From: Gaiellaceae bacterium
GTDB taxonomy: Bacteria; Actinomycetota; Thermoleophilia; Gaiellales; Gaiellaceae
Direction: 5' to 3'
Assembly: GCA_039914895.1 (NCBI GenBank)
Contig: JBDSOJ010000244.1
Coordinates: forward strand, 1-39,527
Length of the DNA: 39,527 nucleotides
Part shown: one piece after another, positions 6,694 to 27,816 of the stretch
Layout: each line of letters opens with the position of its first letter
Numbering within the stretch: the stretch's first letter is position 1
The notes under the pieces: generated by a model
Database searches by the model: none
What the model saw: only the letters and a program-made list of their open reading frames with translations
Told to the model about the DNA's origin: nothing
Program-made: the position numbers and the translations under genes

Positions 6694-9179
6694 GGCAGCG
6701 CCTCGAGCCAGTCGAGCGGCGCCGGGTCGAGCAGCAGCAGCCCGGCGGGGACGGGGACGCCGCCGGCGCCGACCGCGGGCTGCTGGGCGAGCAGCCTCTC
6801 GGCGAGACCGGGTGTGGCGCCCGCGTAGAGCCGGTCGATGTCCACCGCCAGCACGCCTCGCACGGTGTGCGCCGCCGCCGTCACCTCGGAGCGGAACACG
6901 GGCTCGACGGAGCCGCGCGCCTCGAAGGAATACGCGGCCCGCAGGGCGCCCTCGACGCCGGTCAGCACGACCGCCTGCTCGTAAGCGGGATCGACCGCCA
7001 CCCTGAGCGCGAGCCGGAAGGTCGCGAGCTCAGCCTCGAGCACCGCCACCTGGACGCGAGGATCTCCGTGGGCGCGCAACGTCTCGGCGAGGTCGTCGAG
7101 TCGGTCCGCGGCCGTCTGACCCGATGCGCCGGACAGCGCGACGGTGACGACGACCGTCCTGCCGCCGCGGAGGGGGAGCACGGCGGCGTGCGCCTTCGCC
7201 ACTCCGGCGAAGGCGCGGGCGAAGTCCTCGTAGTCGAGCAGGGACACGGCGCGACCGAGCGTCCGCATCGCCAGCGGGATCGACGCGCGTGCGGACTCCT
7301 CCCCCTCGGGGTCGACGCCGCCGCCGGCCGCCAGCGGGTTGCTCACGCCCTTCGCGCCGAGCGGACGGTCGAGCAGCTGCGCGAGCGCGCCCGCGCCGAC
7401 GTTCCCGGCCGCGCCCAGCCCCTTTCGGTACCGAGCCCTGACGTTGGTGCTCCCGGTCGGCAGCCTGGCGCCCCGCTCCCCGTCGCCGAACTGCACGTAG
7501 GTCGCGCCCTGCTCGTCCGTGCGGACGGCGTAGGCCCGGTCACGAGGGCCGGCGCCGTAGAGCGTCGGCAGCTCGTCCCAGCGGACGTCGTTGACGCGCA
7601 CCTCGAGGGCCGAGTCGGCACCCGACGGATCGGTGGACTGGGTGTACGTGAGCGGGTCGTGGGCGAGCGCGAAGCGCTGGAAGGCCGCCGCGGCGCGGCC
7701 GGAGCCGAGCAGCTGCCGCACCGTCTCGCCGTGCGTGGCCAGAGCCACGTTGCCGTGCACGACGACGGTCGTGCGGTCGTATGCCGTCGCGAGATCGTCA
7801 GCGAGGACAAGGCGCCAGCGGCCGGCGACCTTCTGCACCTGGTCGAGCACGCCGGCCTCGGCGTGCTCCTCGCCCGACGCGGTGAGTCCACGGACGAGCA
7901 GGCGACGACCCGGGCGCATCGCCGAGACGTCGACGTCGACCTCGACGAAGCCGCCCTCGACGTCGCTCTCGTCCGGCGCCTCGGCGAGCGTCAGCGGCTC
8001 GCTGACGGCAAGAACGGTGGTCTCGCGCACCTCGACGTCGAACTCGTCGTAGTTCTCGCCGGCTTCGAGCGTCAGGCGCGTGACCTTGCCGGAGGTCGCA
8101 AACTCGGCCCGGGAGAGCTCGTCGACCAGCCTCACGCGCCAGAGCTCGCGGTAGGCCGGCGTCGACAGCACGATCCAGGAGCCCGGCACGACGTCCGGAT
8201 GCGACCCGTCCAGGTCGACGGTGGCCGCGAGCGGCCCGATCTTGTAGAGCGGCCACTCGTCGTCCTTCAAGTCTCCTTCCGGATAGTTCTCGCGGAAGTC
8301 CTCGGACATCGAGAGCCACATCGGCGCGTTGTGCCCGAAGATGTTGACGCGCTTGCGCAGCACGAACGGCTCCGGCGGGTTGGCGGGCTCGACGTAGGGG
8401 TCGAGCGAACCGAGCGGCTCGGCCCACCGCACCAGGGTTCGCTCGGCGGCGGCGTCGACCTCGACCTCGCTGAGCAGCCGGAGATCCCAGTGCTCGTTCA
8501 GGACGTCGGAGCCGGCGAGCAGGAAGGCGTCGCCGGGCTTCAGGTTGAGCGCCGCGCCCTGGAGGTAGGCGTGGGTGGCGCCGAGGCCCGGCACGAACGG
8601 CTTCGTCAGCGAGGCTGCAAGCGCGTTCCACTCGGGCCGCGCCTCGACCGTCTCCACGGTCTCGAAGGTCTGCGGCTGCTCGCCGGGGCCGGGGATGCTC
8701 TGCACGCGCAGCCCCGGCTCCAGTACGACCTCGGCCGGGGTCACCGGCGGAGCGGTACCCGGGTCTCGCGACAATCCAGGAGGAACCCCGGGCGGCGGCT
8801 CGAGAGCGAAGGCCAGGTGCGTCTCGGCCGCGACTCCCGGCCGCAGCTGGTAGCCGATCAGCCGTCCGAGCTCCTGGAGCGAGATCCGTTCTCGAGCGGT
8901 GCGCAGGTAGGACTCCTGCGCGAGGCGCTCGCTGTAGAAGGTGAGCACGTCGGCCGTGACCGCCCAGGAATCGAGCAGCGCGATCGAGAAGTCGTCGCGC
9001 TCGCGGGTGCCGAGTCCGGCGAGCCGCGGCCGGGCCGAGTGGGTCAGCCCGGCGAGCAGGGACGCGAGGAAGTCCGGGTGCGTCCCGATCCGGTAGCCGA
9101 TCGCCGAGAGCCCCGGGCGGTTCCGCACCTCGAGCGGGGTGCGCTCCGTGACGCCCGAGCAGCAGCCGCAGGCGCTCAC
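6690..9179 (-). CDS. Baseplate J-like (putative baseplate assembly) protein, paralog 2
   Basis: The real start is the GTG at 9179, overlapping the upstream TGA; the track ORF extends to 9677. The N-terminus is SACGCCSGVTERTPLEVRNRPGLSAIGYRIGTHPDF. The C-terminal part carries the baseplate-J signature GNVGAGALAQLL...NPLAAGGGVDPEGEESAR...GRAVSLLDYEDFA. Confidence 0.8.
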   Translation of the reverse strand: MSACGCCSGVTERTPLEVRNRPGLSAIGYRIGTHPDFLASLLAGLTHSARPRLAGLGTRERDDFSIALLDSWAVTADVLTFYSERLAQESYLRTARERISLQELGRLIGYQLRPGVAAETHLAFALEPPPGVPPGLSRDPGTAPPVTPAEVVLEPGLRVQSIPGPGEQPQTFETVETVEARPEWNALAASLTKPFVPGLGATHAYLQGAALNLKPGDAFLLAGSDVLNEHWDLRLLSEVEVDAAAERTLVRWAEPLGSLDPYVEPANPPEPFVLRKRVNIFGHNAPMWLSMSEDFRENYPEGDLKDDEWPLYKIGPLAATVDLDGSHPDVVPGSWIVLSTPAYRELWRVRLVDELSRAEFATSGKVTRLTLEAGENYDEFDVEVRETTVLAVSEPLTLAEAPDESDVEGGFVEVDVDVSAMRPGRRLLVRGLTASGEEHAEAGVLDQVQKVAGRWRLVLADDLATAYDRTTVVVHGNVALATHGETVRQLLGSGRAAAAFQRFALAHDPLTYTQSTDPSGADSALEVRVNDVRWDELPTLYGAGPRDRAYAVRTDEQGATYVQFGDGERGARLPTGSTNVRARYRKGLGAAGNVGAGALAQLLDRPLGAKGVSNPLAAGGGVDPEGEESARASIPLAMRTLGRAVSLLDYEDFARAFAGVAKAHAAVLPLRGGRTVVVTVALSGASGQTAADRLDDLAETLRAHGDPRVQVAVLEAELATFRLALRVAVDPAYEQAVVLTGVEGALRAAYSFEARGSVEPVFRSEVTAAAHTVRGVLAVDIDRLYAGATPGLAERLLAQQPAVGAGGVPVPAGLLLLDPAPLDWLEALP

Positions 9180-11923
9180 TTGCCGCCTCCCGCGCTCAGC
9201 ACGAGCACGCCGTGCTCGGGGAAGCTCGGATCGTCGTCGAGCCTCGCGATCTCGAGCCCGTCCAGCGTCAGCACGCCGGTGTCGAGGGCCGACGACGCGT
9301 CGTCGCGCTGGCGCTGGAAAGCGGTCGCGGTCACCGACTGCACTCCCGGGACGGCCTGCGCGGCGGCCACGATCACCGAGAGGTAAACGGGCTGGCCGAA
9401 CGTGAACCGGTCGGGGTGGAAGAACCCGAGCGTCCCGTCCGGGCGGACCCGGCTCGAGAGGACGTCGAGCACCGCCGCCTTCACGTGTGAGCGGAAGTAG
9501 TCGGGCTCGACGCACACGTGGAGCCCGACCTCGAGCGGCACGAACCGCGGGCCGTCGACCTCGAGGTCGTAGCCTGCCATCCGGAACGGCTCCAGGTGAC
9601 GCCGGATCCCGCGCTCGAACGTCTCGTCGACGGCGCTGCCGCCCGCGCGGTCGGCCGTGACGAAGACCGTGTGCCACGAGCCGGTCCAGCGGAACCGCGC
9701 CGCAGCCCGCTGGACCAGCGGGCTGCGCTCGGTGACCAGCGCATAGTCGTCGGCGGTCACGGCGCGCTGCTGGACGAGGAACGCCTCGGGGGCGTCGCGA
9801 CGCACGGCCTCCGCGGGCTCGGCGTCGACGCCCCCGGTGGCCGCGAGCGCGTTGTCGACGCCGAGCAGGCCGGGCTGGGCGGTGACGACGTGAGCGATCG
9901 CACTCGCGCCGACGTTGCCGGCCGTCCCGTTGCCGACCCGATATGTGGCCTCGAAGACCGTACCCTGCTCGGGTCGGCGGCCGTGCGCGCCGTCCCCGAA
10001 GCGCAGCGTCGCGGCTCCGTCGTGCTCGACCTCGACGACGAACTCGGCCGCGCCACCGTCGCTGGCGAGCAGGTCGGCCTGCGGTTGCCAGGGCTCAGTT
10101 GCGGCGAGGAGCGTCCCCTCGAGCTCGATCGCCGGCCTCGCAGCCCGAGCGTCGGCGGCGTCGGCGGCGGCGGCGACGGTCGCCGCGGCCGAAGCGGGCC
10201 GCTCGAGCACGTTGAGGATCCCCGTCACGGCGTCCAGGCGCAGGAGGGCGACCGTGACCCCGTCGCTCACCGACCACACGTCGTCGTCGCCGCGCACGAC
10301 GGCTGGCCCGACCTCGAACGAGAACCCTCGCTCCTCCAGCCAGTCGTGCAATGCCGCGTCGAACGTCAATCCCTGCAGGGCGATCGTGAGCGCCGGCGTG
10401 ATCGCGCCCTCCGCGACCACCCGCGTCGGTGCGGGTCGGGCGTGCGTGAGCGGGGCGCTCGCAAGCGTCGGGCGGAAACGCGCCGGCACCGGCTGAACCT
10501 CGGGCCGCTCGCAAGGGTCGCAGGCGGGCTCGCCGACGGAGCTGAGCACCGGCTCCGGCACCTCGCCGAGAAACTCGCCGGCGATCGTGCGCCCGTGATC
10601 GGCGAGCACGACGTTCCCCCACGCCTCGCCCACGACCAGCCCGGGCTGATCCTCGACGGAGATGCAGAGCGGGAACGGCAGCGCGTCCGCCTTGTCCCAC
10701 GCGATCTCCGTGACCACGACCGAGGCGTTCGTGGGCGGGTCGGCGAAGAGGCCGCCCGACGGGTCGAGCGACGGCACGACGTGGGTCAGGCGGACCGCCG
10801 CCCGCCTGGCCGGATCGGCGTCCTCGGGCTGGCCGGTGATCGGTCCGACCACCTCAGCGAGCACGAGGACGTCGCCCGCCCTCAGCGCGGGGTGGTCGCC
10901 GACGAGCGTGGCCGAGGTCGCCCCGCGCGGCAGGCAGCAGCCAGCGTCGCCCCATGTCCAGAAGTCGAAGCGCACGTGGGACTCGTAGAGCACCGCGTCG
11001 TCCATGATCTCGAAGGTTTCGGCGCCCGCGGCCAGCGCTGCGCGGTGGGCCGGCCCACCCGGCTCGACGACGGCCGGCACGTCCGGAACGCGGGTCAGGA
11101 GCGGGGTGCGCCGGTCGAGCGAGACGCCCTCAGCCTCCACCACGACCCGCATCCAGGCCCGTGCGTTCGAGCCCTCGTGCACGAGATAGTCGACCAACCG
11201 CGCGTGGCGGCGTAGCGAGGCGCGCCGGCGGGCGGTGGCAAGGTAGGCCTCGGTGGCGACGGCGTCCTGGCAGTACGACAGCTCGTCGGCGACGTAGGCG
11301 AGTGTCTCGACGAGGGCGACGCCGACGTCCGCCGGGCTGCGCTCGGCCCACCCGGGCGCGAGCAGGCTCAGCCGGTCGAGCATGAGCGCGCGGAAGGTGC
11401 CGTAGTCCTTCGCGAGATAGTCGATCGCCGGCCCCTCGGCCGACTCGCGTCCGCACTGGCACTGCGGCCCGCAGTCGAAGCCGGACGGGCATTCGACCTT
11501 GAACGAGAACTCGACCGCCGCGAGCAGCGGATCGAAGCCGGCGGGCACGGCGTCGCTCCCGGCGCCGGCAACGAGTCGCAGCGTGTAGCGCGAGAAGTCG
11601 CCCCGCGAGCTCGTCCGGACGAGCAGGACGGTGGCCGGGTCCTCGAGCCCGGCGACGAGCGACGGGGCCTCGCCGGCCGGCAGCGTCGTCGCCGGCGCGA
11701 CCCAGTCGACCCCGACCGTCGCGATCCGCTCGCCGCCGGCGACGACTACGTTGGCCGGCCCGAACGCAGGCGGAGGCTGCAGCAGCCGCACGAACAACGT
11801 CCGCTGCTGCAGGGCGTCGCTCGGCGCCTCGGAGTCGGACACCTCGAGGTACTCGATGCCGTTCAGCGCGCCGGCCTCCTTCACGGCCTGGAGCCGCCGC
11901 TCGTCGCAGCAGGCGTACTTCAC
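9176..11923 (-). CDS. Baseplate J-like (gp6/Afp11-like) protein, paralog 1
   Basis: The real start is the GTG at 11923, overlapping the gp25-like stop; the track ORF extends to 12055. The N-terminus is KYACCDERRLQAVK. The baseplate-J signature is GNVGASAIAHVV...NALAATGGVDAEPAEAVRRDAPEAF...RAVTADDYA. Confidence 0.8.
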   Translation of the reverse strand: MKYACCDERRLQAVKEAGALNGIEYLEVSDSEAPSDALQQRTLFVRLLQPPPAFGPANVVVAGGERIATVGVDWVAPATTLPAGEAPSLVAGLEDPATVLLVRTSSRGDFSRYTLRLVAGAGSDAVPAGFDPLLAAVEFSFKVECPSGFDCGPQCQCGRESAEGPAIDYLAKDYGTFRALMLDRLSLLAPGWAERSPADVGVALVETLAYVADELSYCQDAVATEAYLATARRRASLRRHARLVDYLVHEGSNARAWMRVVVEAEGVSLDRRTPLLTRVPDVPAVVEPGGPAHRAALAAGAETFEIMDDAVLYESHVRFDFWTWGDAGCCLPRGATSATLVGDHPALRAGDVLVLAEVVGPITGQPEDADPARRAAVRLTHVVPSLDPSGGLFADPPTNASVVVTEIAWDKADALPFPLCISVEDQPGLVVGEAWGNVVLADHGRTIAGEFLGEVPEPVLSSVGEPACDPCERPEVQPVPARFRPTLASAPLTHARPAPTRVVAEGAITPALTIALQGLTFDAALHDWLEERGFSFEVGPAVVRGDDDVWSVSDGVTVALLRLDAVTGILNVLERPASAAATVAAAADAADARAARPAIELEGTLLAATEPWQPQADLLASDGGAAEFVVEVEHDGAATLRFGDGAHGRRPEQGTVFEATYRVGNGTAGNVGASAIAHVVTAQPGLLGVDNALAATGGVDAEPAEAVRRDAPEAFLVQQRAVTADDYALVTERSPLVQRAAARFRWTGSWHTVFVTADRAGGSAVDETFERGIRRHLEPFRMAGYDLEVDGPRFVPLEVGLHVCVEPDYFRSHVKAAVLDVLSSRVRPDGTLGFFHPDRFTFGQPVYLSVIVAAAQAVPGVQSVTATAFQRQRDDASSALDTGVLTLDGLEIARLDDDPSFPEHGVLVLSAGGGK

Positions 11924-12279
11924 GGCGTCCCCCGCGAGAACGACGCCGAGCCTTGCTCCCGTGTGCGCAGGTCGACGTACGCCACGGTGACCGAGAGCTC
12001 GCCCTCGACCTGCCGGACCTCGACCGAGTCGACGGCGATGAGGTGCCCGAGCCATTGCTGGAGCGCGCCCTGCACGAGGTGCTGGGTCGTGGCGACGAGC
12101 TCCGGGCCGCCGGGCTCGAAGACGAGGTCGAGCAGCCCGCTGCCGAAGTCCGGCCTCATCACCCGCTCGCCCGGGGTGGTGAAGAGCACCTGCTCGATCA
12201 GGTCGCGCAGGTGGCCGTCCGCGCCGGTGTCGGCCGTTCGGCCGCGCCCGTCGACGTGGTAGGGGAAGTCGACGGTCAC
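11920..12279 (-). CDS. gp25/GPW-like baseplate wedge protein
   Basis: These are the last 119 codons of track ORF 11920..13155. The GTG at 12279 overlaps the PAAR-like stop (GTGA). The motif LIEQVLFTTPGERVMRPDFGSGLLDLVFEP is the gp25-family hallmark. Confidence 0.85.
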   Translation of the reverse strand: MTVDFPYHVDGRGRTADTGADGHLRDLIEQVLFTTPGERVMRPDFGSGLLDLVFEPGGPELVATTQHLVQGALQQWLGHLIAVDSVEVRQVEGELSVTVAYVDLRTREQGSASFSRGTP

Positions 12280-12761: not shown

Positions 12762-13286
12762 TCACACCACCGTCAGCGCGCCCAGGTTGATGTCGACGCT
12801 TGGCCCGACCATGTTGATCGTCGCGCCCTTGCCGTTCGAGATCACGATCCCGACGTCGCTGACGGAGAGCATCGCCCCCGTCGTCGTCTGGATCATGATC
12901 CCGCCGGTGGGACCCGGAACGTCGCTGACGACGATCCCGTTCTTGAGCGTCGTCTGGATCGTGATCCCGTTGACGGCGGGCGGCACCGAGCGCGCCAACA
13001 CCGGCACCTCGGCAGCGGTGCCCCAGTACCCGCCCACCCAGATCGGCCGGTCGGGGTCGCCCTGCTCGAACTCCATCCAGACGCCGGACCCGATCTGCGG
13101 CACGGTGAAGACGCCGGTGTTGATCCCGGCCACGGGCACGCACGGCATCGCCCACGAGGTCGGCGCCACACCCGAGACGTCGGGCACGATCGCCATGATC
13201 CGCCCGATCTGCAGCGGGTCGACGTTGTTGACGACCGTGCCGCGGAACTTGCCGTAGTAGCGCTGCTGAACCGCGACCTCGCTCAT
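12762..13286 (-). CDS. gp5/gpV-like spike (OB-fold plus beta-helical needle)
   Basis: YGKFRGTVVNNVDPLQIGRIMAIVPDV...GVWMEFEQGDPDRPIWVGGYW is the classic gp5/VgrG OB-fold motif. The C-terminal part has short repetitive beta-strand units. The ATG at 13286 overlaps the upstream stop (ATGA). Confidence 0.9.
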   Translation of the reverse strand: MSEVAVQQRYYGKFRGTVVNNVDPLQIGRIMAIVPDVSGVAPTSWAMPCVPVAGINTGVFTVPQIGSGVWMEFEQGDPDRPIWVGGYWGTAAEVPVLARSVPPAVNGITIQTTLKNGIVVSDVPGPTGGIMIQTTTGAMLSVSDVGIVISNGKGATINMVGPSVDINLGALTVV

Positions 13287-14774: not shown

Positions 14775-15425
14775 CTAGATCCCCTCCAGCCCGAGCGAGG
14801 AGAGCTCAACCGACCGGGCGCGGCCCGCCAGGCTCTCCTTCGTCCGCAGGTAGCCCATGAAGAGCGTTCCGCCGCGGTGCCGGAAACCCAGGTCGTCGAC
14901 CGAGAGCACGCGCAGGTCGAGGTCGACCCTGGCTCGGATCGGGTTGAGCGCCGCGTCGAAGGCCTCCTCAGTGACCGACAGGCCCGTGACGCGCACCGGC
15001 ACGACCCGCTGCTTGCTCCAGACGAAGAGCGTGAGCGGCGCCTCCAGCGGCAGCACCTCGAGAACGCCGGAGGCCGCGAGCCCGTCGTTTCTCTGCAGGT
15101 CGTCGGCGCGCGGATGGACGAGAGTCTCGAGCACGGCCAGCTGCGGATGGATCCCGAGCCCGACCGCATCCGGATTGCCGGTCGGATCGGCCAGACGATC
15201 GGTCGCGTCAATCTCGGCCGCGAGCTTGATCGTCTCGACGGCCGCGCCCTTGAGGCGCAGCGCCTGCGAGCGGTCGCCTCCGTCGCTTCCGCTCGCCTGC
15301 ACCTGGAGCGTCCGCGTCAGCGTGTCCGGGTTGTACTGGAGCGCGATCACGCCGAGCACGCGCGCCGTGTCGGGATCGACCTGCACGAGGCCGGCCTTCA
15401 GGAGGCGGGGCGAGAACGGGGTCAC
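14775..15425 (-). CDS. CIS tube-like protein (tube initiator, Afp5/Afp7-position)
   Basis: The protein is 216 aa. The segment LTLFVWSKQRVVPVRVTGLSVTEEAFDAALNPIRARVDLDLRVL matches the conserved F.WG....PV.I.S.SI.E..F...L.P.RA.V.L motif of CIS tube/initiator proteins. The GTG at 15425 overlaps the upstream stop. Confidence 0.7.
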   Translation of the reverse strand: MTPFSPRLLKAGLVQVDPDTARVLGVIALQYNPDTLTRTLQVQASGSDGGDRSQALRLKGAAVETIKLAAEIDATDRLADPTGNPDAVGLGIHPQLAVLETLVHPRADDLQRNDGLAASGVLEVLPLEAPLTLFVWSKQRVVPVRVTGLSVTEEAFDAALNPIRARVDLDLRVLSVDDLGFRHRGGTLFMGYLRTKESLAGRARSVELSSLGLEGI

Positions 15426-17785
15426 GGCTTACCCTTCGCCGACTCGAGCGGCCGCTCGACGACGTAGAGCTTGGACTGATCGCACGGATCCTTGAGCCCG
15501 ACGACCTCGTCCGACCTGATCTCGCGCAGCTTCTCGTTGAGGGTGACGCGGGTGCAGAGCCCCGCTAGACCGACGATGCGCCACTCGGCCCCGACGCGTG
15601 CGATCTTGGGGAACCTGCCGCTGAGATCCGCCTGGGCTTTGGCCGCGATCTTTGGATCCTTGGAGGTGACCTTCCTGGTCAGGCCGATCGCGATCTTGGC
15701 GACGTCGTTGAACTCCTCGGCAAGCTTGGCGTGCATCTGCGGTTCCGACTTGCGCCCCGAGCCATGCCCGAGGAAGACGTCGCCGCCCTTCGGCTCGCGG
15801 CGGACGAGCACTGCATTCTCGAGCCGCCAGGCGTTGCCGATCCGCTCGTTGATCAGGTCGTACCCGAGGTGGTTGAAGAACACCACGTGGTCGCCGACGA
15901 TCAGATCGCGTACCGAGCTCGGAGCCACACGCTGGGTGCTCCGAAGCCCGGGCTTCGCCACGGTTCCCTTGCCGACGATCGCCTCGTAGACGATCGGGTG
16001 GAGGTCGGTGAAGGCGTCATACCGCAGCCGGATCTTGTCCGCCCCAAATGCGGCGATTCGCTTATTGAACTCGGCCTTGCCAACCGAGTCGGCGAGCGAC
16101 ATGAAGTGGACAATCGAGATCAGGTAGTCGCAGTGCAGCAGGGTGCGGCGGTGCGGCTGCTCCGGCACGAACAGGAAGGCGATCGCGCTGTACGGGTCCG
16201 CCTTGCCCTTGTCGGTCAGCAGCCACGAGTAGTCGCCCATGTCGCCGTAGACACGGAAGCGCTCGTGACGCGGCAGGTCGAGCAGCGCCTTGTTCTTCGC
16301 CTTGTCCTTGCGCAGCGCGTAGTCGTCCGGCGGGAGGGGCTTCCAGAAATCACGGGCCGCGTAGTTCACCCTCGGGCCGTAGAGCACGGCCGGCCCCGAG
16401 AAGGGGTAGCCGAACGCGCTCCGCTTGTCACCGGGCACCTTCTCGACGGTCTGCTGCGACTCGACCGTGTGCTCGGCCGTCGCCACCCGCTTCACCAGCT
16501 CGGACGTCAGCTCCCCCTCGTCCGTGAAGTCAAACGTGTCGCCGGCGTCGGCCATGTCGTCGAGCACCGACCGGGCAAGCGCCTTGCTTGCCCACTTGCG
16601 CGCCGCCAGGAAGGCCCCGCGCTGTTTCGGCGGCATCTCAACGCCCTTCACGACCACCTTTCGCTGGATGGGAGACGCGTGCCCGTCGCGGCCGCGCAGT
16701 GGCGACGCGGACTGCTGCGCCACGTGTGCTAGCTCATGCGCGAGCAGGTGATGGCCGGCGTGGCTCGCGGGCGCGTATCGACCTGCGCCGAAGACGACGT
16801 CCTCGCCGACCGTGAACGCGGCCGCGTCGAGGCGAGCTGCCCCTGCGGCCGCTCGCGCGTCGTCGTGCACACGGACGCGCGCGAAGTCGTAGCCGAAGCG
16901 CGCCTCCATCGCGCGGCGCGTGGAGGGGTCGAGCGGGCGGCCGGGCGTCGCGAGCGCGTCGTCGACGTTCGCGTAAGCGGGAGGCGCCGCCGAGGGCGAC
17001 GCCGGAGCGGGCTGGGCGGGCGCCTTCTCCTCGTCCTGCTTCGGCGCGTCCGTCTTCAGCGGGATCGTGAAGCCGGGTAGGCCCTTCTGTCGCGCGAGCC
17101 ACGCAGCCACGGCCTCGTCCTCCTGCTGCTTCTGCGCGGCCTTCTCGCTCGCCGGGCGAAACATCTCCTCCTGCGCCTTGAGCCGCGCGATGTCGGCGGC
17201 GATCGGGTCGGTCTTCTTCGCGCCCTTGCCCTTCTGGCCCTGCTCCCTGACGGTGATCGTGAGGCCGACGAACGTGGGCTTGTTGACCGGCCCCTCGTAG
17301 GTGACCTGGGCCGAGACGCCCGCCAGCTTCGGCCAGAGCTTCTCGAGCGGGAGCTCCGGCGGCTGGATCGGCAGCTCCTTGCCGGTCGCAGCGAGTGCGG
17401 CCACGCCGCCGGCCAGCGCCGTCCCCGTCACCGCGAGACCCACGGGCGAGGTGATCGCGTCCGTGACCGTCTTCACGAGGGGGTCGGCGAGCACCTTCTC
17501 CTTCACCGCCTGGCCCTGCGGCGTCTTCAACGCCGCCTCGCCGGCCTTCTTCAACGCCTCCTTCTTCTTCTCGTCGTCGGTCTTCTCCTTGACCGCCTCC
17601 TGGCGCTGCACCGGCTCGGGCGCGGAGGCGGGCATGGTGGCGAACGACCAGCCGGCCACGCTGCCGCCGCGCGTAACGACGTCCGCGGCGTGCTCGGCCT
17701 CGCGCTCGTCCCGGTCGTGCGGCCTCGAGACGGGCCGCGCAGCCGCCTTCCCGGCGCGCGCGGCCTGGGCGGGCGTCCTCGTCAC
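15422..17785 (-). CDS. DUF4157 (PVC-type metallopeptidase-like) domain protein with a C-terminal domain of unknown family; putative CIS cargo/effector
   Basis: The likely start is the GTG at 17785, overlapping the stop of the 93-aa gene; the track ORF extends to 17932. The leader is PHDRDEREAEHAADVV. The DUF4157 core is RRAMEARFGYDFARVRVHDDARAAAGAARLDAAAFTVGEDVVFGAGRYAPASHAGHHLLAHELAHVAQQ, which contains HExxH. The last 400 aa or so are Lys-rich and encoded by visibly less GC-rich DNA. Confidence 0.85.
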   Translation of the reverse strand: MTRTPAQAARAGKAAARPVSRPHDRDEREAEHAADVVTRGGSVAGWSFATMPASAPEPVQRQEAVKEKTDDEKKKEALKKAGEAALKTPQGQAVKEKVLADPLVKTVTDAITSPVGLAVTGTALAGGVAALAATGKELPIQPPELPLEKLWPKLAGVSAQVTYEGPVNKPTFVGLTITVREQGQKGKGAKKTDPIAADIARLKAQEEMFRPASEKAAQKQQEDEAVAAWLARQKGLPGFTIPLKTDAPKQDEEKAPAQPAPASPSAAPPAYANVDDALATPGRPLDPSTRRAMEARFGYDFARVRVHDDARAAAGAARLDAAAFTVGEDVVFGAGRYAPASHAGHHLLAHELAHVAQQSASPLRGRDGHASPIQRKVVVKGVEMPPKQRGAFLAARKWASKALARSVLDDMADAGDTFDFTDEGELTSELVKRVATAEHTVESQQTVEKVPGDKRSAFGYPFSGPAVLYGPRVNYAARDFWKPLPPDDYALRKDKAKNKALLDLPRHERFRVYGDMGDYSWLLTDKGKADPYSAIAFLFVPEQPHRRTLLHCDYLISIVHFMSLADSVGKAEFNKRIAAFGADKIRLRYDAFTDLHPIVYEAIVGKGTVAKPGLRSTQRVAPSSVRDLIVGDHVVFFNHLGYDLINERIGNAWRLENAVLVRREPKGGDVFLGHGSGRKSEPQMHAKLAEEFNDVAKIAIGLTRKVTSKDPKIAAKAQADLSGRFPKIARVGAEWRIVGLAGLCTRVTLNEKLREIRSDEVVGLKDPCDQSKLYVVERPLESAKGKP

Positions 17786-18063
17786 CGCTCGGCCCTCCCG
17801 GAGAGCGCGCCCCAGACGGCGCCGGCCACGGCCCCGCCGAGCGCCGCCGGCGACGCGGCCGGCGCGTCGACGGCCGGGAGCCGGCGGAACGCCTCCGCGC
17901 GCGGAGCGAGCGTGGCGCCGGAGCGCACCCACTGCTCGGCGAGCAAGGCCAGCTGCGCCTCGAGCGCGGCCACCGCTGCACGGGCCTGCTCCGGCGGGAC
18001 GCCGCGGAGCACCACTTCGTCCACCACGAGCTCGAGCCGCCCAGGGATCATGTCCGCGCTCAC
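17782..18063 (-). CDS. Small hypothetical protein (93 aa) coupled to both the ATPase and the DUF4157 gene
   Basis: GTGA overlaps occur at both ends (18063/18060 and 17785/17782), with an alternative ATG at 18051. The sequence contains GRLELVVDEVVLRGVPPEQARAAVAALEAQLALL. I recognise no family. Confidence 0.55.
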   Translation of the reverse strand: MSADMIPGRLELVVDEVVLRGVPPEQARAAVAALEAQLALLAEQWVRSGATLAPRAEAFRRLPAVDAPAASPAALGGAVAGAVWGALSGRAER

Positions 18064-19988
18064 GTCAGGCCCGCCGTCTCCGCCGCGGTCAGCGGCCGCT
18101 CCGACTTGGCGTACTCGACCTGCGCGGCGCGAAGCACGTGCGCCGGGGTCACCGGCGTCCCCTGCTCGGCGGCCCCGAACGCGGCCGAGAGGGCGATCGC
18201 CCGAATCGACCCGCCGGGTAGGGTCAGCCGCGCCAGCCGGTCTGGGTCGACGCCCTCGAGCGGCGTCGCCGCGGGGAAGACGCGCCGCCAGATCTCGGCG
18301 CGCTGTCCGGCGTCCGGGAAGGGGAACTGAACGACGAAGCGCAACCGCCGCAGGAACGCTCGGTCGAGGTTGCTGCGCAGGTTCGAGGTCAGGATCGCAA
18401 GCCCGCGATACGACTCCATCCGCTGGAGGAGATAGGCGACCTCGAGGTTCGCGTAGCGGTCGTGCCCGTCCCTCACCTCGCCGCGCTTGCCGAACAGCGC
18501 GTCCGCCTCGTCGAAGAGGAGGACGGCCCCGCCGGCCTCGGCGGCGTCGAACAGGCGACGCAGGTTCTTCTCGGTCTCGCCGATGTACTTGCTGACGGTC
18601 GCCGAGAGGTCGATCCGGTAGAGATCGAGCTCGAGGTCGGCTGCGAGCACCTCCGCGGCCATCGTCTTGCCTGTGCCGCTCTCACCCGTGAAGAGCGCCG
18701 TGACGCCGAGCCCGCGGGCGCTGCGCTCGCCGAAGCCCCAGCGCTCGTAGACCTGGGTGCGGTGGCGGACGTGGCGGGCGACCTCGCGCAGCAGCTCCGT
18801 CTGGCCGGCGGGCAGAACGAGCTCGTCCCAATTCGCCGTCGGCTCGATGCGCTCGGCGAGGCCGTCCAGGCGGACGCGGGCGCGCTCACGGCAGAGGCGC
18901 CTGAAGGTCACAGGGAGGTCGACTCCGTCGGCCGACGACGACAGCTCCCGCACGACGGCGTCGACGGCCGCGGCACCGAGCCGATAATGCTGCGCAGCCT
19001 GCTCCACCTCGGCTTCGAGGGTCTTCGAGAGGTCTGCTCCGAGGCTGCGGCGCCAGAGCGCGCGCTGCTCGGCCGGCGAGGGCAGCGCCACAGAGCGGCG
19101 GAGCTCGACCCGGCCCGGGATGCGCTCGTCGTGCTCGCCGACGAGGACGACGAGCGGGCTCTCGAGCAGATCGAGCAGGGCAGCGACCGCGGGTTCGCTC
19201 CCGCGTTCCGCGTCCACGACCGGGAGTCCGTTGAGCAGCAATGCCTCGCGGTCGACGAGCCGAGCCAGCTCCGCGAGCTCGGGTCCGGGCGGCGGCAGCG
19301 CCTCGGCGCGAACGAGGAGCGTCAGGCGCTCGAGCTGGGCGGCGAGCTGCTGTGCGACGCCCAGACGCGCCTCGGCGTCATCGCCCTCGAGGCGCACGAC
19401 GACCGGGGCGCCGGTGCCGGCCGCGGTCCGGGCGAGCTCCTCCCCCAGCTGTCGTTGTGACGGCGTCAGCGATGGCGACCCGAAGGCGGTCCGCAGCAGC
19501 CCGTCGAGGCGCGGGTCGGGCGAGGGCATCCCCGTCAGCTGCTGGAGCACGCGCTCGTCGAGCTGCAACCGGCGGCTCGCCAGCGTCGGCCCCGGCCCCA
19601 ACTCGAGCAGCCGCCAGCGACGGAGGGGCGAGCGGAGAGACAGAGCGCTCCAGTGCGGGTCCGGCAGGGCGGTCAGCGCCAGCCCGAAGGTCGGCCGCGG
19701 ATCTGCGGCACCGAGCAGCTCGGCGGCAAGCAACGCGACCTCCCCGTCGAGCTCGACGGCAGCGCAGAGGAGGAGGAGCTGCCGCTCGAACGGCGACAGC
19801 CCGAGCAGCCGAGCGAGCCGGTCGGCGGCCGGTTCGATTGCCGGCGGCTCGCCTGGGTCGCGCCGCGGCGGTGCTTCTCCGTCGCGGTAGGCGAGAAGCA
19901 GCGCGCGCGCGTGCGCGATCTCGCCGGACAGCCACTCCTGTTCGAGCTCGACGTACGTGAGCTCGAGCCGCTCGGCCACGGCGGTCAT
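18060..19988 (-). CDS. AAA+ ATPase (Afp15-like CIS assembly ATPase)
   Basis: The real start is the ATG at 19988, overlapping the cap-gene stop (ATGA); the track ORF runs on to 21308. The protein has Walker A GESGTGKT and Walker B LLFDEADALF, followed by SNLRSNLDRAFLRRLRF. Confidence 0.9.
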   Translation of the reverse strand: MTAVAERLELTYVELEQEWLSGEIAHARALLLAYRDGEAPPRRDPGEPPAIEPAADRLARLLGLSPFERQLLLLCAAVELDGEVALLAAELLGAADPRPTFGLALTALPDPHWSALSLRSPLRRWRLLELGPGPTLASRRLQLDERVLQQLTGMPSPDPRLDGLLRTAFGSPSLTPSQRQLGEELARTAAGTGAPVVVRLEGDDAEARLGVAQQLAAQLERLTLLVRAEALPPPGPELAELARLVDREALLLNGLPVVDAERGSEPAVAALLDLLESPLVVLVGEHDERIPGRVELRRSVALPSPAEQRALWRRSLGADLSKTLEAEVEQAAQHYRLGAAAVDAVVRELSSSADGVDLPVTFRRLCRERARVRLDGLAERIEPTANWDELVLPAGQTELLREVARHVRHRTQVYERWGFGERSARGLGVTALFTGESGTGKTMAAEVLAADLELDLYRIDLSATVSKYIGETEKNLRRLFDAAEAGGAVLLFDEADALFGKRGEVRDGHDRYANLEVAYLLQRMESYRGLAILTSNLRSNLDRAFLRRLRFVVQFPFPDAGQRAEIWRRVFPAATPLEGVDPDRLARLTLPGGSIRAIALSAAFGAAEQGTPVTPAHVLRAAQVEYAKSERPLTAAETAGLT

Positions 19989-21298
19989 GCCGGCACCGTC
20001 ACGGACTGCGCCGGATCGAAGGCAGGCGGCTCCGCCGTCCGGTCGACGAGGAGGCTCTCGACTCCGTCCACGGTCAGCCGCACCCACTGCGCGCCCGGTG
20101 GGACGACGCCCAGCTCGAAGGTCAGCGTCGAGGCTGCCGCCGGGTGGGGCTCGGCGAGGGCGGTGTCGCCGCCGAGGGTGAGGCGTGCCTCCTGCGCGGG
20201 CCGCACCTGGGGTGCGACGTCGAGCGTGACGGTCACGCGCCCGGTTCCGGCATCGCGGGTGACGGTTGTGGGCGGCAGGTCGGGCTCGGGCGCGAGCAGC
20301 AGCGCGGCCACGTTCGACTCGCGAGGGTCGATCTCGCCGGGCCGGACGAGTGAGACCGTGACCGTGTACAGGCCGGGCGGCAAGGCCTGCTCGGCGGCTG
20401 CTCCGGACGGGAGAGTCACGTCGATGCCGGTGCGGTCGGCGTTCGCGCCCACTACGAGCTCGTGCGACTGGTCGAGCAGGCGGTGGGCGAGCCGCACCAC
20501 GGTCGACGTGCCGTCGAGATGGTGGCCCGCGAGCCGCACCGTCTCGCCGAGACGGGCGGCGGGCTGGCCGGCCGACGGAACTGCGCGCTCGACAGTCGGG
20601 TACGGCGGCACGAGGCTCGGCTCGACGACGACGCCGCGATCGCGACCGGTGGGGAGGTCGACCGGGCCGCGCGACATGACGGGGAGCGGCGTCCGCGACG
20701 GTTTGCGCGCCTCGATCAGCACGACCGACACGAGATAGGCCGCGGTCGGCCGGTAGTGGGCCTGCATCGCCGACCACAGCCGCGACAGCTCCTCCGTGTC
20801 CATCGGCTCGAGCGTCACGGTGAGCGCCTCCAGCTGGTCGGCGAGGTCGGAGGCCGTGAGCGCCTGGAACGCCGGCGGTAGGATCGACGGGCCGAGCGGG
20901 CTCGGCTCGAGCGCCGTACGGATCGCCGCGCGGTCGAGCACGGGGCGCTCGTGGAGCAAGTGCATCGCGTAGCCGAGCAGGATCTCGGCCTGGAAGTCGG
21001 CTGCGCCGTAGGCCGTGAGCAGGTAGTGCAGGTCGAGCGCCAGCGGCGGGTTGGTCAGCCTCGCGCCGTTGCCGTCGTACGCGGGGAGCTCGGCGTTCCG
21101 CCAGCCCTGGTTCGGGCTGGTGCGGTAGAGGAAGAGGTTGAGCGAGGGGGGCGCATCCGGCTCGTCGAGCTTGATCGTGTCCGGGGCGACGGCGGTAACA
21201 GCGACGGAGCCCAGCGGCGCGCCGACGTCGACGAGGCCGTTGTCGAGCAGGTTCCGGAGCACCGCGCTCACAGCACCGATCGCCAATGGGCTGCTCAC
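19985..21298 (-). CDS. DUF4255 (Pvc16/Afp16-like) tail terminator/cap protein
   Basis: The N-domain carries AVSAVLRNLLDNGL...PPSLNLFLYRTSPNQGWRN...PPLALDLHYLLTAYG, the hallmark of DUF4255. The GTG at 21298 overlaps the upstream stop. Confidence 0.85.
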   Translation of the reverse strand: MSSPLAIGAVSAVLRNLLDNGLVDVGAPLGSVAVTAVAPDTIKLDEPDAPPSLNLFLYRTSPNQGWRNAELPAYDGNGARLTNPPLALDLHYLLTAYGAADFQAEILLGYAMHLLHERPVLDRAAIRTALEPSPLGPSILPPAFQALTASDLADQLEALTVTLEPMDTEELSRLWSAMQAHYRPTAAYLVSVVLIEARKPSRTPLPVMSRGPVDLPTGRDRGVVVEPSLVPPYPTVERAVPSAGQPAARLGETVRLAGHHLDGTSTVVRLAHRLLDQSHELVVGANADRTGIDVTLPSGAAAEQALPPGLYTVTVSLVRPGEIDPRESNVAALLLAPEPDLPPTTVTRDAGTGRVTVTLDVAPQVRPAQEARLTLGGDTALAEPHPAAASTLTFELGVVPPGAQWVRLTVDGVESLLVDRTAEPPAFDPAQSVTVPA

Positions 21299-21987
21299 GG
21301 GCCACCACGCTCGCCGCGCAGGTAGTCCGACAGGGACAGAGCGTCCTCGCCCGCGGGTTCGCGCTGCTGCGGCCGAGCCGGCGCCTCGTCGTGGAGATTC
21401 GCTCGGACTTCGAGCCGGCCGATCCGAATGTGCACCGTCGGCTGATCCGGAGCGGGCGCGCTCCGGGAGGAGCGAATGGCGGCGGCCGTGAGGATGGCCG
21501 GAGCGGCCGGCGCCGGCGACGCCGCGGCGGCAGCGACCGCGGGATTGGGTGGATCGAGAACCTCGATCAACCCCTCCACGGGGTTGGCGACGGTCGGTTG
21601 CGGCTGCTCGCCCACCTCGCCTCCGACGTCGACCGACGCGTCGAGCACCGGCGTCTGTGGCTTCGCGGCCCGCCGCGGTTCCGGCGCGGGCTGAGCCACG
21701 CTGCGCGCTTGGCGTCGAGGTGGGAGACGCACCGGGTTTGCCGCTACCGCGCTCCCGTCCACGACCGGACCGTAAGTAGCCGTCGGCTCGAAAAGCGGCA
21801 TTCGCACCGGCCGGCCGGATTCGCCGGGCGCGCTGCGGGGAGCCGGTGCCACGACCTCGTCCTCCGCGACCGCCAGCGCGGACGTCGAGTCCGAGCCGGG
21901 ATCCTCGAACAGGGCGGGCAGCCGAGGTTGGGCCACAGGGGCCTCGCCGACGGCGCGGGCGGCCATCCGTGCGATGAAGTCAGTCAC
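21295..21987 (-). CDS. Hypothetical Pro/Ala-rich protein; candidate (short) tape-measure/assembly protein
   Basis: The protein is 230 aa. Its N-terminus is TDFIARMAARAVGEAPVAQPRLPALFE and its C-terminus is TVHIRIGRLEVRANL. It has a low-complexity middle, and GTGA overlaps at both ends. The functional call rests only on position and on remembered end motifs. Confidence 0.5.
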   Translation of the reverse strand: MTDFIARMAARAVGEAPVAQPRLPALFEDPGSDSTSALAVAEDEVVAPAPRSAPGESGRPVRMPLFEPTATYGPVVDGSAVAANPVRLPPRRQARSVAQPAPEPRRAAKPQTPVLDASVDVGGEVGEQPQPTVANPVEGLIEVLDPPNPAVAAAAASPAPAAPAILTAAAIRSSRSAPAPDQPTVHIRIGRLEVRANLHDEAPARPQQREPAGEDALSLSDYLRGERGGP

Positions 21988-22735: not shown

Positions 22736-23257
22736 CTACGGCTCGGAGAACTGCGGCTCGGTGGGCTCGGGCACTTCGTAATCGCGCTCCCAGCCCTCAT
22801 GCTCGAGCTTGAGGGTCTGGATCGCCACGGCGTTCGCGTTCGCGTCCAGGTCGGGCAGGCCCTGGTACTCCGAGACCCAGGCCCGGTAGACCTTGTACGC
22901 GACGACGAGCTGCCCCGCCTCGTTGTAGACGTCGATGATCATGTCCTTGCGGAAGTCCTTCAGCGAGACCTCCGCCCCGAGCCCCGACCCGAAGTTCCAG
23001 ACCTTGTTGGCCCACGACTCGAACTCCGTGTCGTGCGTGACGCCGCGCTCGAGGGTGATCGCCTCGTACTTCGTCCGACCGGGCGACTTCCGGCTGGTCG
23101 ACGGGTCGCCGCCCTCACGATGCTCGACCACCTCGGTCGTGCGCTTCAGCGCGCCCACCTTGCTCACGCCGGCGACGTACCGGCCGTCCCACTTGACCCG
23201 GAACTTGAAGTTCTTGTAGGGGTCGAAGCGCTGTGCGTTGACACTGAACTGGGCCAT
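22736..23257 (-). CDS. Tail tube protein (T4 gp19 / Afp1-like)
   Basis: These are the last 173 codons of track ORF 22736..24820. The protein starts MAQFSVNAQRFDPYKNFKFRVKWDGRYVAGVSKVGALKRTTEVVEHREGGDPSTSRKSPGRTKYEAITLERGVTHD, the classic gp19-like tube signature. The ATG shares one base with the sheath TGA at 23257. Confidence 0.9.
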   Translation of the reverse strand: MAQFSVNAQRFDPYKNFKFRVKWDGRYVAGVSKVGALKRTTEVVEHREGGDPSTSRKSPGRTKYEAITLERGVTHDTEFESWANKVWNFGSGLGAEVSLKDFRKDMIIDVYNEAGQLVVAYKVYRAWVSEYQGLPDLDANANAVAIQTLKLEHEGWERDYEVPEPTEPQFSEP

Positions 23258-24786
23258 CATGCGCTCCCCGTTTGGCCAGCCATCTGCTGGAGCTTGAGCA
23301 CGACGAACTCCGCCGGCTTCAACGGCGCGAAGCCGACGATGATGTTGACGATGCCGAGGTTGACGTCGTCCTGCGTGGTCGACTCGGCGTCGCACTTGAC
23401 GAAGTACGCCTCCCGCGGCGTGGTCCCCGCGAACGCGCCCTGCCGGAAGAGGTTGTTCATGAAGGCGCCGACGTTGAGCCGGATCTGCGCCCAGAGAGGC
23501 GCGTCGTTCGGCTCGAACACGACCCACTGCGTGCCGCGATAGAGCGACTCCTCGAGGAAGAGCGCGGTGCGGCGCACCGGTAGGTACTTCCATTCCGAGG
23601 TCAGTCGATCCGACCCCTCCCGCGTCCGCGCACCCCAGACGACGTGACCCGCTGCGGGCGCTGCGCGCAGGCAGTTGACGCCGAGCGGGTTGAGCCGGCC
23701 GATCTCGAGATCGGTGAGCGGCACGGCGAGCTCTGCGACGCCGCTCAGCGTCGCCTCGAGGCCGGCGGGTGCCTTCCACACGCCGCGGGTGGCGTCGGTG
23801 CGCGCGATCACCCCCGCGATCGCCCCCGCCGGCGAGAACGTGCCGAGCTGGTCGTCCCGGAGCGGGTCGAGCTGGCGGATGCGCGGGAAGTACACGGCCG
23901 CGTTCTTGCTGCTCGTGAAGGAGGCCGCAGTGGCGCCCGTCTCCGCGTCGCCGATCGTCAGCCACGCGGCGGGCGGACCCATGACGACCACCGCGCGACG
24001 CTCGGTCGCGTACGAGATCGTGTCCGCGAGCACGTCCGAGTCGACGTCGTTGCCCGCCGTGTACGGCGGCACGACGACGAGGTTGACGAGGTCGACCTTC
24101 TCGAGCGCATACAGGCCCTTCTTGTTCGCGCGCAGGTTCGCGCCGGTCGTGTAGAGCAGCTTGTCCAGCGGGTTGCCGTCGTTCCCGTTCGCGGCTGCCT
24201 GGGTGACGGGGAAGGACGACTGCGGTTGCGTCGGCAGCGCGCCGGTCATGCGGACGAGCGTCGACTCCGCGGCGAGCACGAGGTCGACGCGGCGCGGGCT
24301 CCCGACGGCGAAGGACACGTTCCGGAAGACCTCGGTCTTGCCCATCACGGGATCGCTGTCCGTCACGGTGAGGTTGAACAGCGTCGCGTCCGAGGTGTCC
24401 TTGACCTGATCGTCGATCGTCGCGTCCAGCTTCAAGCCCCAGGCGCCGGGCGATGCGGCCTCGAGGGCCACCTGACGGGTGCCGGCCCCAAGCGAGATCG
24501 ACGCGGTGTCGTTCGCCTTCGGCTTGTGCACCCGCACGACGATCGCCATCGAGCCGCCGTGGCGGTAGAAGTCGCGGACGGCGTAACCCAGGGTGCTCTC
24601 GACCCAGAGCCCCCCGAAGATCCGTTCGAAGTCGGCGTACGACGTGATCGTCACCGGCTCGTCGATGCGACCTCGCAAGGCGCTTCCGACGAAGGCTGTG
24701 ATCGAGGTCGCAACCCCGGTGATGGTGCGGACGCCGCTCGGGAGTTCCTCGACGTAGACACCTGGATAGGTCAGCGTGCTCGGCAT
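23257..24786 (-). CDS. Contractile tail sheath protein
   Basis: I prefer the start at ATG 24786 (MPSTLTYPGVYVEELPSG) because GAGGAGGAGG lies 4-13 nt upstream; the track ORF starts at 24813. TYPGVYVEE is the sheath N-terminal hallmark, and the C-terminal region is GLNPLGVNCLR...GHVVWGARTR. Confidence 0.92.
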   Translation of the reverse strand: MPSTLTYPGVYVEELPSGVRTITGVATSITAFVGSALRGRIDEPVTITSYADFERIFGGLWVESTLGYAVRDFYRHGGSMAIVVRVHKPKANDTASISLGAGTRQVALEAASPGAWGLKLDATIDDQVKDTSDATLFNLTVTDSDPVMGKTEVFRNVSFAVGSPRRVDLVLAAESTLVRMTGALPTQPQSSFPVTQAAANGNDGNPLDKLLYTTGANLRANKKGLYALEKVDLVNLVVVPPYTAGNDVDSDVLADTISYATERRAVVVMGPPAAWLTIGDAETGATAASFTSSKNAAVYFPRIRQLDPLRDDQLGTFSPAGAIAGVIARTDATRGVWKAPAGLEATLSGVAELAVPLTDLEIGRLNPLGVNCLRAAPAAGHVVWGARTREGSDRLTSEWKYLPVRRTALFLEESLYRGTQWVVFEPNDAPLWAQIRLNVGAFMNNLFRQGAFAGTTPREAYFVKCDAESTTQDDVNLGIVNIIVGFAPLKPAEFVVLKLQQMAGQTGSA

Positions 24787-24813
24787 GCAGCCTCCTCCTC
24801 GTGTGCCCGGCAA

Positions 24814-27480: not shown

Positions 27481-27551
27481 CGGCGACCGCGTGTAAACCC
27501 GCTGTCTGGCCCGCTCGCTCCCACCGTCCCGGTGGATCTGCGTCTACTGGG

Positions 27552-27758
27552 TTACGCCGTGTCCGCGGGCAGGCGATCGGTGTCGAGCGCCCACCGCTCG
27601 ATCGAGCTCCAGCGCCAGACCGTGGAGCGACCGAGCTTCCCTATCGGTTTCGGGAAACCGGGTCCGGCCGCGAGGACGTTCACCCGCTGCGGCGAAATTC
27701 CGAGCCGCTTCGCGATGTCAACCGCGATCACAAGCTCTGTTCGCGCGTCAAGCCGCAT
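27552..27758 (-). CDS. AlpA/excisionase-family helix-turn-helix protein
   Basis: VDIAKRLGISPQRVNVLAAGPGFPKPIGKLGRSTVWRWSSIERW fits the Xis/AlpA pattern. The gene sits immediately upstream of the integrase. Confidence 0.7.
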   Translation of the reverse strand: MRLDARTELVIAVDIAKRLGISPQRVNVLAAGPGFPKPIGKLGRSTVWRWSSIERWALDTDRLPADTA

Positions 27759-27816
27759 GCATCGAGGATAGCGATGCCCTTGTTTTGAATCAACCGACCG
27801 TGGTGGACGCGCAGCT

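Follow-up and report, generated by a model that had tools for sequence, protein, structure and literature searches.

A contig of a Gaiellaceae bacterium (GCA_039914895.1, contig JBDSOJ010000244.1) carries an operon that encodes a contractile injection system (CIS). The window analyzed here is the whole stretch from position 1 to position 39,527 (39,527 nucleotides). Two genes of this operon, g93 and g787, are placed between the gene of an AAA+ ATPase, which is probably the cargo loader, and g216, a tube-initiator-like gene. All genes of this region lie on the minus strand, and g787 is the sole DUF4157 gene within the window. We propose that g787 encodes a cargo protein of the injection system, with a C-terminal domain related to the spore-coat transglutaminase Tgl of Bacillus subtilis. 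The four adjacent genes are the following.

14775-15425, minus strand: g216, tube-initiator-like (Afp5/Cis5-like), 216 aa, GTG start; weak PF19266 CIS_tube match
15422-17785, minus strand: g787, DUF4157/eCIS_core protein, putative cargo, 787 aa plus stop, GTG start at 17785
17782-18063, minus strand: g93, small conserved CIS-lineage protein, 93 aa
18060-19988, minus strand: Pvc15/Cis15-like AAA+ ATPase, 642 aa; PF00004 (1.8e-23) and PF22977 WHD (5.6e-16)

An earlier reading of this DNA (the original prediction) had placed a 93-aa and a 787-aa gene between the assembly ATPase and the tube-initiator gene, and both open reading frames (ORFs) were confirmed. It had also described four GTGA junctions. 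The overlaps are real, joining start and stop at the ATPase/g93, g93/g787 and g787/g216 boundaries, but two genes account for three such junctions and the outer ones differ. The Pvc16/ATPase junction is ATGA, which fixes the ATG start of the ATPase, and g216 is separated from g122 by a 3-nt spacer. Two sister loci, L085 and L089, show identical 4-nt couplings.

Carrier Region of g787

The first part of g787 consists of an N-terminal region and a DUF4157 domain, with the features listed here.

16937-17785, minus strand: N-terminal region, residues 1-283, with a leader motif, a Lys/Ala/Pro/Glu-rich spacer and a hydrophobic segment; putative loading/docking region
17678-17722, minus strand: codons 22-36, with the EREAE leader motif at residues 27-34 (motif scan)
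17381-17449, minus strand: hydrophobic Ala/Gly segment, residues 113-135 (Kyte-Doolittle 19-residue mean 1.77)
16706-16936, minus strand: DUF4157/eCIS_core domain, residues 284-360 (PF13699, E 1.3e-29)

PF13699, formerly DUF4157, is now named eCIS_core ("eCIS core domain"). It scores 102.6 bits on g787 against a cut-off of 22. The HELAHVAQQ motif occupies residues 350-358, with H350-E351-x-x-H354 encoded at 16724-16738 and codon 358 at 16712-16714; the textbook DUF4157 core ending in this motif had been recognized correctly. In many toxins of extracellular CISs (eCISs), DUF4157 lies N-terminal to variable toxin domains, and it serves as a marker of such toxins (PMC8213781). The HExxH motif within PF13699, the location in a CIS operon, and the layout of N-terminal region, DUF4157 and putative C-terminal effector place g787, as judged from its sequence, among the DUF4157-type CIS cargo proteins, in agreement with the original assignment.

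The leader was initially read as DREREAEHAADVV; the actual leader is DRDEREAEHAADVV. Among related loci, 38 of 83 DUF4157 ORFs contain its motif, E[RQK]EA[DEH]..A, compared with 2 of 929 background ORFs. The spacer is probably disordered or helical, and the one hydrophobic stretch expected within it is found at residues 113-135.

The N-terminal region is homologous to those of four proteins from other loci: the second slot protein of L085 (slotB, 69% identity), the L089 protein (62%), and the L032 (E 3e-36) and L024 proteins. The C-termini of these proteins differ. The spacer of about 200 residues is common to the sister loci, a Methylococcaceae protein (L032) and a Verrucomicrobiota protein (L024), and is missing from the closest homologues of the g787 C-terminal domain. 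g787 is thus a composite in which a leader, a lineage-specific spacer, DUF4157 and a Tgl-like cassette are joined.

C-Terminal Domain and Its Relationship to Tgl

The remaining part of the protein could not be placed in the original prediction, which proposed profile and structure searches of this domain. Such searches place it with Tgl and with no other family.

15425-16660, minus strand: Tgl-like (PF20085) cysteine transglutaminase/amidase-fold domain, residues 376-787, 412 aa (Pfam, hhalign, AF2 model, Foldseek)
16130-16132, 15818-15820 and 15764-15766, minus strand: putative catalytic codons C552, E656 and H674 (alignment to Tgl)
16133-16135 and 15887-15892, minus strand: other invariant codons, H551 and D632-H633 (homologue alignments)

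The Pfam TGL model scores 25.1 bits on the isolated domain, above its gathering threshold (GA) of 23.7, and matches 33 of 36 homologues at E < 0.01 (best E 1.9e-10). In NCBIfam, g787 matched the Tgl equivalog only, below threshold. Searched as a single sequence against those of the PDB, g787 gave no match, and Tgl was reached by the family profile only; the profile search returned B. subtilis Tgl at the top, in three collinear segments. In hhalign, the family aligns with Tgl residues 16-216 with a probability of 95.5% (E 1.4e-8); the numbering of the Tgl sequence used is consistent with the Tgl segments from the PDB profile search. The AlphaFold2 (AF2) model of the domain has a pLDDT of 94.3 and a pTM of 0.91. 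Foldseek against the PDB gave Tgl (4p8i_A) as the sole significant match, with an E of 3.3e-6, a TM score of 0.72 normalized to Tgl, and 15% identity. By profile comparison and predicted fold, the domain is a relative of Tgl.

The three motifs singled out earlier in this domain were all found: TLLHCDYLISIVHF at 548-561, GDHVVFFNH at 631-639 and WRLENAVLV at 653-661. The GDH triplet follows TLLHC at a distance of 83 residues, against an estimate of about 95. These motifs hold the invariant family residues H551-C552-D553, D632-H633 and E656-N657. In Tgl, H551-C552 corresponds to E115-C116, G631-D632-H633 to G167-D168-C169, W653-R-L-E656-N to W184-R-G-E187-N, and G673-H674-G to A199-H200-G. C552, E656 and H674 are invariant in two alignments (36 and 20 homologues) and are kept in a 32%-identical paralogue. 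In the AF2 model, C552 caps the N-terminus of helix 177-193, as expected of a papain-like fold. Fernandes et al. reportedly described in 2015 that Tgl uses Cys116 with Glu187 or Glu115 as catalytic partner, on an NlpC/P60 core. The proposal of a Cys-based papain/transglutaminase-like enzyme is supported, the domain being Tgl-like, but the Cys-His-Asn/Asp triad is not established, because the reported partner in Tgl is a Glu. Candidate catalytic residues can be named for testing, namely C552, E656, H551 and H674.

Relatives of the domain form at least 193 clusters at 90% identity, mostly with the PF13699 plus PF20085 architecture. They come from Burkholderiales, Acidobacteriota, Thermoanaerobaculia, Anaerolineales, Solirubrobacteraceae and Methanothrix. 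At 50% identity, a search of 1.84 billion representatives gave 318 clusters, in which the domain is nearly always C-terminal in proteins of 400-1226 aa. The g787 domain is 57-65% identical to domains from distant phyla, and the similarity there reaches back through DUF4157. Some homologues are already annotated by JGI as "DUF4157/Protein-glutamine gamma-glutamyltransferase". An exact-sequence look-up of g787 in the assembly index gave no match.

Three observations concern the wider family. Versions of the Tgl-like domain without DUF4157 (P0083, P0100, P0161, P0172; L083/L084 10001-11446) carry a short N-terminal LQ..AGN.AVQRLL leader, and at least one of them, P0083, lies outside any CIS locus, adjoining molybdopterin oxidoreductase genes. 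In a metagenomic CIS locus (L081 10001-15975), a DUF4157-Tgl-like gene is the first of a DUF4157 cargo array downstream of the baseplate genes, followed by a DUF4157-Aspzincin_M35 gene, a further DUF4157 protein gene and a Peptidase_M10-like gene; ORFs of 58-83 aa between the array genes could be immunity or adaptor genes. A BFVD search with the Tgl-like model returned two uncharacterized giant-virus proteins, from Yasminevirus (A0A5K0U7G4) and Terrestrivirus (A0A3G4ZPB9), at E of about 1.5e-4, which explain nothing about g787.

Cargo Slot and Cassette Exchange

A genome scan based on the ATPase gave 80 loci from many phyla and archaea, with ATPase identities of 41-54% and none above 54%. The conserved gene order in these loci, as read by local hidden Markov model analysis, is g246, g230, Pvc16, ATPase, g93, zero to four DUF4157 proteins (300-2366 aa), g216, g122, g375 and g174. 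Slot proteins of Streptomyces loci are 2088-2366 aa long. The Tgl-like domain was sought across all 80 loci and found in none. Closer sister loci (L085/L086, L087 and L089/L090) were obtained through g93 homologues. The structural proteins of these sister loci are 70-92% identical to those of the window (ATPases 70-73%, g216 81-82%), and their slots are as follows.

L087: empty slot, g93 followed by g216 after 106 nt
L085/L086 (Gaiellaceae metagenome-assembled genome GCA_036507055.1): two DUF4157 genes, the second 69% identical to g787 residues 14-358, then an unrelated C-terminus with a HEVVH motif
L089/L090: one 1068-aa protein (L089 10273-13479), 62% identical to g787 residues 1-392, with DUF4157 repeated once more and a Tgl-like domain of 32% identity
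Window, 15424-16711, minus strand: exchangeable C-terminal cassette, without nucleotide similarity to the L085 carrier gene; flanks 76-81% identical

The boundaries of this cassette are sharp. In a blastn comparison with L085, the 76-77% identity stops at 16712, where codon Q358 and with it HELAHVAQQ ends, and restarts at 15423, at the g216 start, with 81%. Compared with L087, the whole interval 17780-15419 is absent. These breakpoints, together with differing slot content among near-identical machines, demonstrate cassette exchange by comparison. Such machines may have no cargo gene in the slot, one, or several. Judged on these alignments, not the C-terminal domain alone but the whole g787 gene acts as an interchangeable unit, and the slot between g93 and the tube-initiator gene is hypervariable. 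The Tgl-like domain of L089 is 32% identical to that of the window, compared with 57-65% for distant phyla, which suggests two independent Tgl-like acquisitions in one clade. The natural junction right after HExxHVxQQ, defined at nucleotide resolution, should be useful for programmable cargo engineering in Tme-type CISs, named after the Tme protein of Streptomyces davawensis discussed below.

A swapped-in toxin module had been predicted on the grounds of composition. The swap is borne out by the L085 breakpoints and the missing gene in L087, and not by composition. The DNA of the C-terminal domain is indeed less GC-rich and richer in Lys codons: its GC content of 0.660 is the operon minimum (other genes 0.675-0.80), and Lys makes up 8.2% of the domain and 9.5% of the N-terminal region, against 0-3% in most operon genes. 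As a sign of foreign origin this fails, because GC at third codon positions (GC3) is native, 0.91 vs 0.81-0.96 in the operon. The dip is confined to codon positions 1 and 2 and so reflects amino-acid composition, not foreign codon usage.

Recent acquisition from a low-GC donor was rejected on account of the native GC3 and the choice of Lys codons, 32 of 34 of which are AAG.

Small Protein g93

The g93 product has 28 database homologues, none with a Pfam domain. They share the pattern lElvvDEvvLRGvpPe...RaEa.RR...lG.avA.AVW, with D15, E16, G21, R55, E57 and R60 invariant. A g93 profile gave 60 matches in the 80 loci, of which 58 end 150-480 nt beyond the ATPase stop on the same strand; 59 of the 80 loci are covered. 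In seven loci (L009, L011, L038, L042, L046, L052 and L087), the slot is empty and a g93-like ORF directly precedes the tube initiator. Since g93 is conserved whatever the cargo, and even with an empty slot, it is a core gene of the lineage and not specific to a cargo. The two genes do not constitute the two-gene cargo module initially suggested, and a role of g93 as a cargo-specific chaperone, adaptor or immunity protein is excluded by the same cargo-independent conservation.

The AF2 model of g93 (pLDDT 83.8) shows two helices and an extended N-terminal segment, with no fold match in the PDB. By its sequence conservation, g93 is an accessory or structural component of this CIS lineage; that it works with the ATPase as an assembly or loading factor is a guess. 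It is a conserved small protein absent from published descriptions of the lineage.

Other Genes of the Window

The remaining features of the operon, assigned by Pfam except for g230, are listed in gene order.

25093-25839, minus strand: BTAD regulator
23257-24813, minus strand: sheath
22736-23200, minus strand: gp19-type tube
21295-21987, minus strand: g230, 230 aa, Ala-rich, no Pfam or PHROG match
19985-21298, minus strand: Pvc16_N cap
12762-13286, minus strand: Phage_base_V spike
9176-12055, minus strand: Baseplate_J-like protein, one of two
6690-9677, minus strand: Baseplate_J-like protein, the other of two
1389-4532, minus strand: DUF6519/beta-helix protein, 1047 aa

The 1047-aa protein, a right-handed beta-helix at the distal end of the operon, is probably a tail-fibre or receptor-binding protein. 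g230 lies between g246 and the cap gene, in the position of Afp14. Its conservation with the sister loci is limited to the first 50 residues or so, and in the 80 loci the shortest homologous ORF has about 145 aa and the longest about 1050. g230 is a candidate tape-measure (length-determining) protein of this CIS lineage. PHROGs gave no match for g787, g93, g230, g246, g216 or g375.

Just upstream of the BTAD regulator, 26809-28668 on the minus strand holds an ORF of 223 aa with a partial Phage_integrase domain and one of 283 aa with a C-terminal UvrD_C helicase fragment, which may be mobile-element remnants flanking the CIS island. On the plus strand, 33031-38201 encodes a 1042-aa protein with a GH5 cellulase domain and NHL/beta-propeller repeats, followed by ORFs at 36351-37211 and 37341-38201. 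The domains encoded by these two comprise a zinc ribbon, a cyclase domain of the adenylate/guanylate type and an AAA_16 domain in two parts, and the two ORFs may be a single frameshifted gene.

Proposed Function and Alternative Explanations

We propose, with a probability of about 0.68, that g787 is a cargo or effector of a Tme-type CIS like that of Streptomyces davawensis, built as a three-part mosaic with a Tgl-like enzyme at its end. By analogy with known systems, the N-terminal region would act as a loading sequence, recognized with assistance from the neighboring AAA+ ATPase. The DUF4157 domain may tether g787 at the tube-initiator/spike complex, near the product of the translationally coupled g216, to which the DUF4157 region probably docks. 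Upon contraction, g787 would be ejected. The thiolate of C552, aided by E656 (and H551 or H674), would then attack a side-chain or peptide amide of a target protein to form a thioester. Resolution by a lysine amine would give a cross-link, and resolution by water would give deamidation or hydrolysis. Either outcome could inactivate or immobilize proteins of the target cell after injection.

Several points weigh against this proposal. We computed which domains g787 contains, its predicted fold, the conservation of its residues, its synteny and the breakpoints of the cassette, but loading, docking, delivery, enzyme chemistry and toxicity are what we infer for g787. The full-length protein scores 21.8 bits against Pfam TGL, below the threshold. 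The domain is only 15% identical to Tgl, from which it also departs by an inserted stretch of about 60 aa and by about 100 additional aa at its C-terminus, and the position of Tgl Glu115, a partly redundant second catalytic acid, is taken by the invariant His551; substrate and reaction type could therefore differ. In AlgoCIS, DUF4157 is dispensable for cargo loading, which makes the docking role uncertain. No immunity-like gene is adjacent to g787, which is unusual for an antibacterial toxin. DUF4157-free homologues outside CIS loci, such as P0083, indicate that the Tgl-like domain is not exclusive to CISs.

Three other explanations were weighed, and all are less likely than a Tgl-like cargo. 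It is unlikely, in our estimate, that the C-terminal domain is an NlpC/P60-type peptidoglycan amidase or endopeptidase, similar to the Tae effectors of type VI secretion systems (T6SSs), which lyses bacteria or aids crossing of the wall. PF20085 is filed in the "NlpC/P60, CHAP, and amidases" section of the papain-like cysteine peptidases (PMC10318531), a Cys at a helix N-terminus with a His on a strand is the NlpC/P60 arrangement too, and the cell wall is attacked by many CIS and T6SS effectors. However, the NLPC_P60, CHAP and amidase families of Pfam gave no match at E <= 0.01, Foldseek below E = 1 gave Tgl alone, and the WRxEN motif with the catalytic Glu of Tgl is invariant.

We consider it quite improbable that g787 is primarily a structural tape measure or tube-lumen scaffold, similar to Tme, with the enzyme domain being secondary. 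The hydrophobic segment and the charged, probably helical spacer would suit such a role, as would the position shared with Tme of S. davawensis, just ahead of the genes for tube initiator, hub, spike and PAAR, and nothing else in the operon is annotated as an evident tape measure. Yet the slot is empty in L087 and six other loci and holds zero to four proteins of 300-2366 aa in otherwise collinear loci, a misfit with an essential length ruler. Neither Pfam nor PHROGs gives a tape-measure match, other ORFs of the cluster are larger than g787 (1047, 995 and 959 aa), and the length-variable g230 in the Afp14 position offers an alternative ruler.

Least probable of the three is that the Tgl-like domain acts on the producer, as a maturation enzyme that cross-links CIS particle or envelope proteins and not as a toxin: Tgl, its sole characterized relative, is a structural cross-linker within the producer (PMC10318531), related Streptomyces CISs act inside or on the producer, and the missing adjacent immunity gene would also fit, but the domain is fused to a carrier architecture typical of ejected cargo and is present, absent or replaced among sister loci with near-identical structural genes and missing from 80 of 80 related loci, a pattern of accessory cargo and not of a maturation factor.

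Beyond the proposal that g787 is a Tgl-like cargo, a wider one may be put forward very tentatively, and we doubt it more than we believe it. The Tgl-like domain of about 410 aa could represent an uncharacterized class of CIS-delivered cross-linking or deamidating toxins, based on Cys-Glu (plus His) and spread by cassette across bacterial phyla and archaea, and g93 could at the same time be a hitherto unrecognized part of all Tme-type CISs, connecting the AAA+ loader with any cargo in the slot. If this were true, the Tgl family would extend far beyond spore-formers.

Comparison with Known Systems

A DUF4157-carried, exchangeable CIS effector is a known kind of protein. Cgo1 and Cgo2 of AlgoCIS (Algoriphagus machipongonensis) consist of an N-terminal domain, DUF4157 and a C-terminal domain, and are cargo of the tube lumen; their disordered N-terminal domain is needed for loading, DUF4157 is not, and the Alg15 ATPase was proposed as loading mediator (PMC8894135; bioRxiv 10.64898/2026.05.27.728243). 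g787 shares the three-part layout and a CIS operon with a Cis15-type AAA+ ATPase. It differs in CIS lineage, gene position, N-terminal sequence and C-terminal domain, which is metalloprotease-like in Cgo1. Loading into the tube lumen was shown for Cgo1 and Cgo2, whereas we infer it for g787.

Closer in operon type is Tme of S. davawensis, a 2247-aa protein that copurifies with the spike and tube initiator and for which exchange of the C-terminal domain has been proposed (PMC11126660). The slot is shared, in the order ATPase, small gene, DUF4157 protein, tube initiator, hub, spike and PAAR, and both proteins unite DUF4157, a hydrophobic segment and a C-terminal enzyme. The slot proteins of the Streptomyces loci noted above (2088-2366 aa) match Tme in size. 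In Tme, DUF4157 is N-terminal, and the protein further contains an EndA-like nuclease and a long tape-measure-like region, whereas g787 has 787 residues and a Tgl-like C-terminus. Its DUF4157 begins at residue 284, the EREAE leader alone being N-terminal, and Pfam and PHROGs detected no tape-measure homology.

In the SLP system of Streptomyces lividans, the tube initiator SlpT2 is bound by Sle2, a small protein with DUF4157 (PMC13277306). The g787 locus likewise pairs DUF4157 with an Afp5-like tube initiator, here by translational coupling of the genes. Sle2 is a separate adaptor for the DUF4157-free cargo Sle1 and belongs to another CIS class, whereas in g787 carrier and putative effector are one polypeptide.

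EAT14 of Chitinophaga rupis, with DUF4157 and a transglutaminase-like domain, is toxic in a Cys/Asp/His-dependent manner (PMC11297309), so that a PF09017 transglutaminase-like eCIS toxin has already been characterized. As judged from its domains, g787 is likewise a CIS-associated DUF4157 protein with a C-terminal transglutaminase-like cysteine domain. The two domains are, however, unrelated: that of EAT14 is of the MTG type (PF09017, the fold of 5m6q) with a Cys-Asp-His triad and LysM, and that of g787 is of the Tgl type (PF20085, the fold of 4p8i). For g787, PF09017 gave no match at E <= 0.01, and MTG structures were absent from the Foldseek matches. In the literature searched, we found no description of Tgl-type domains as CIS cargo, although automated annotation already labels homologues; in the supplements of Danov et al., the gamma-glutamyltransferase term matched an unrelated protein only.

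With B. subtilis Tgl (PDB 4P8I), the g787 domain shares the predicted fold, equivalents of Cys116, Glu187 and His200, and the GD and WRxEN motifs. It differs in length (412 vs 245 aa), in having His for Glu115, and in its fusion to a CIS carrier, and its family occurs in nonsporulating phyla and an archaeon. These findings do not overturn the current understanding. DUF4157-fused CIS effectors are a recognized reservoir of toxins in which most C-terminal domains lack annotation, and g787 allows one of these to be assigned to the Tgl fold.

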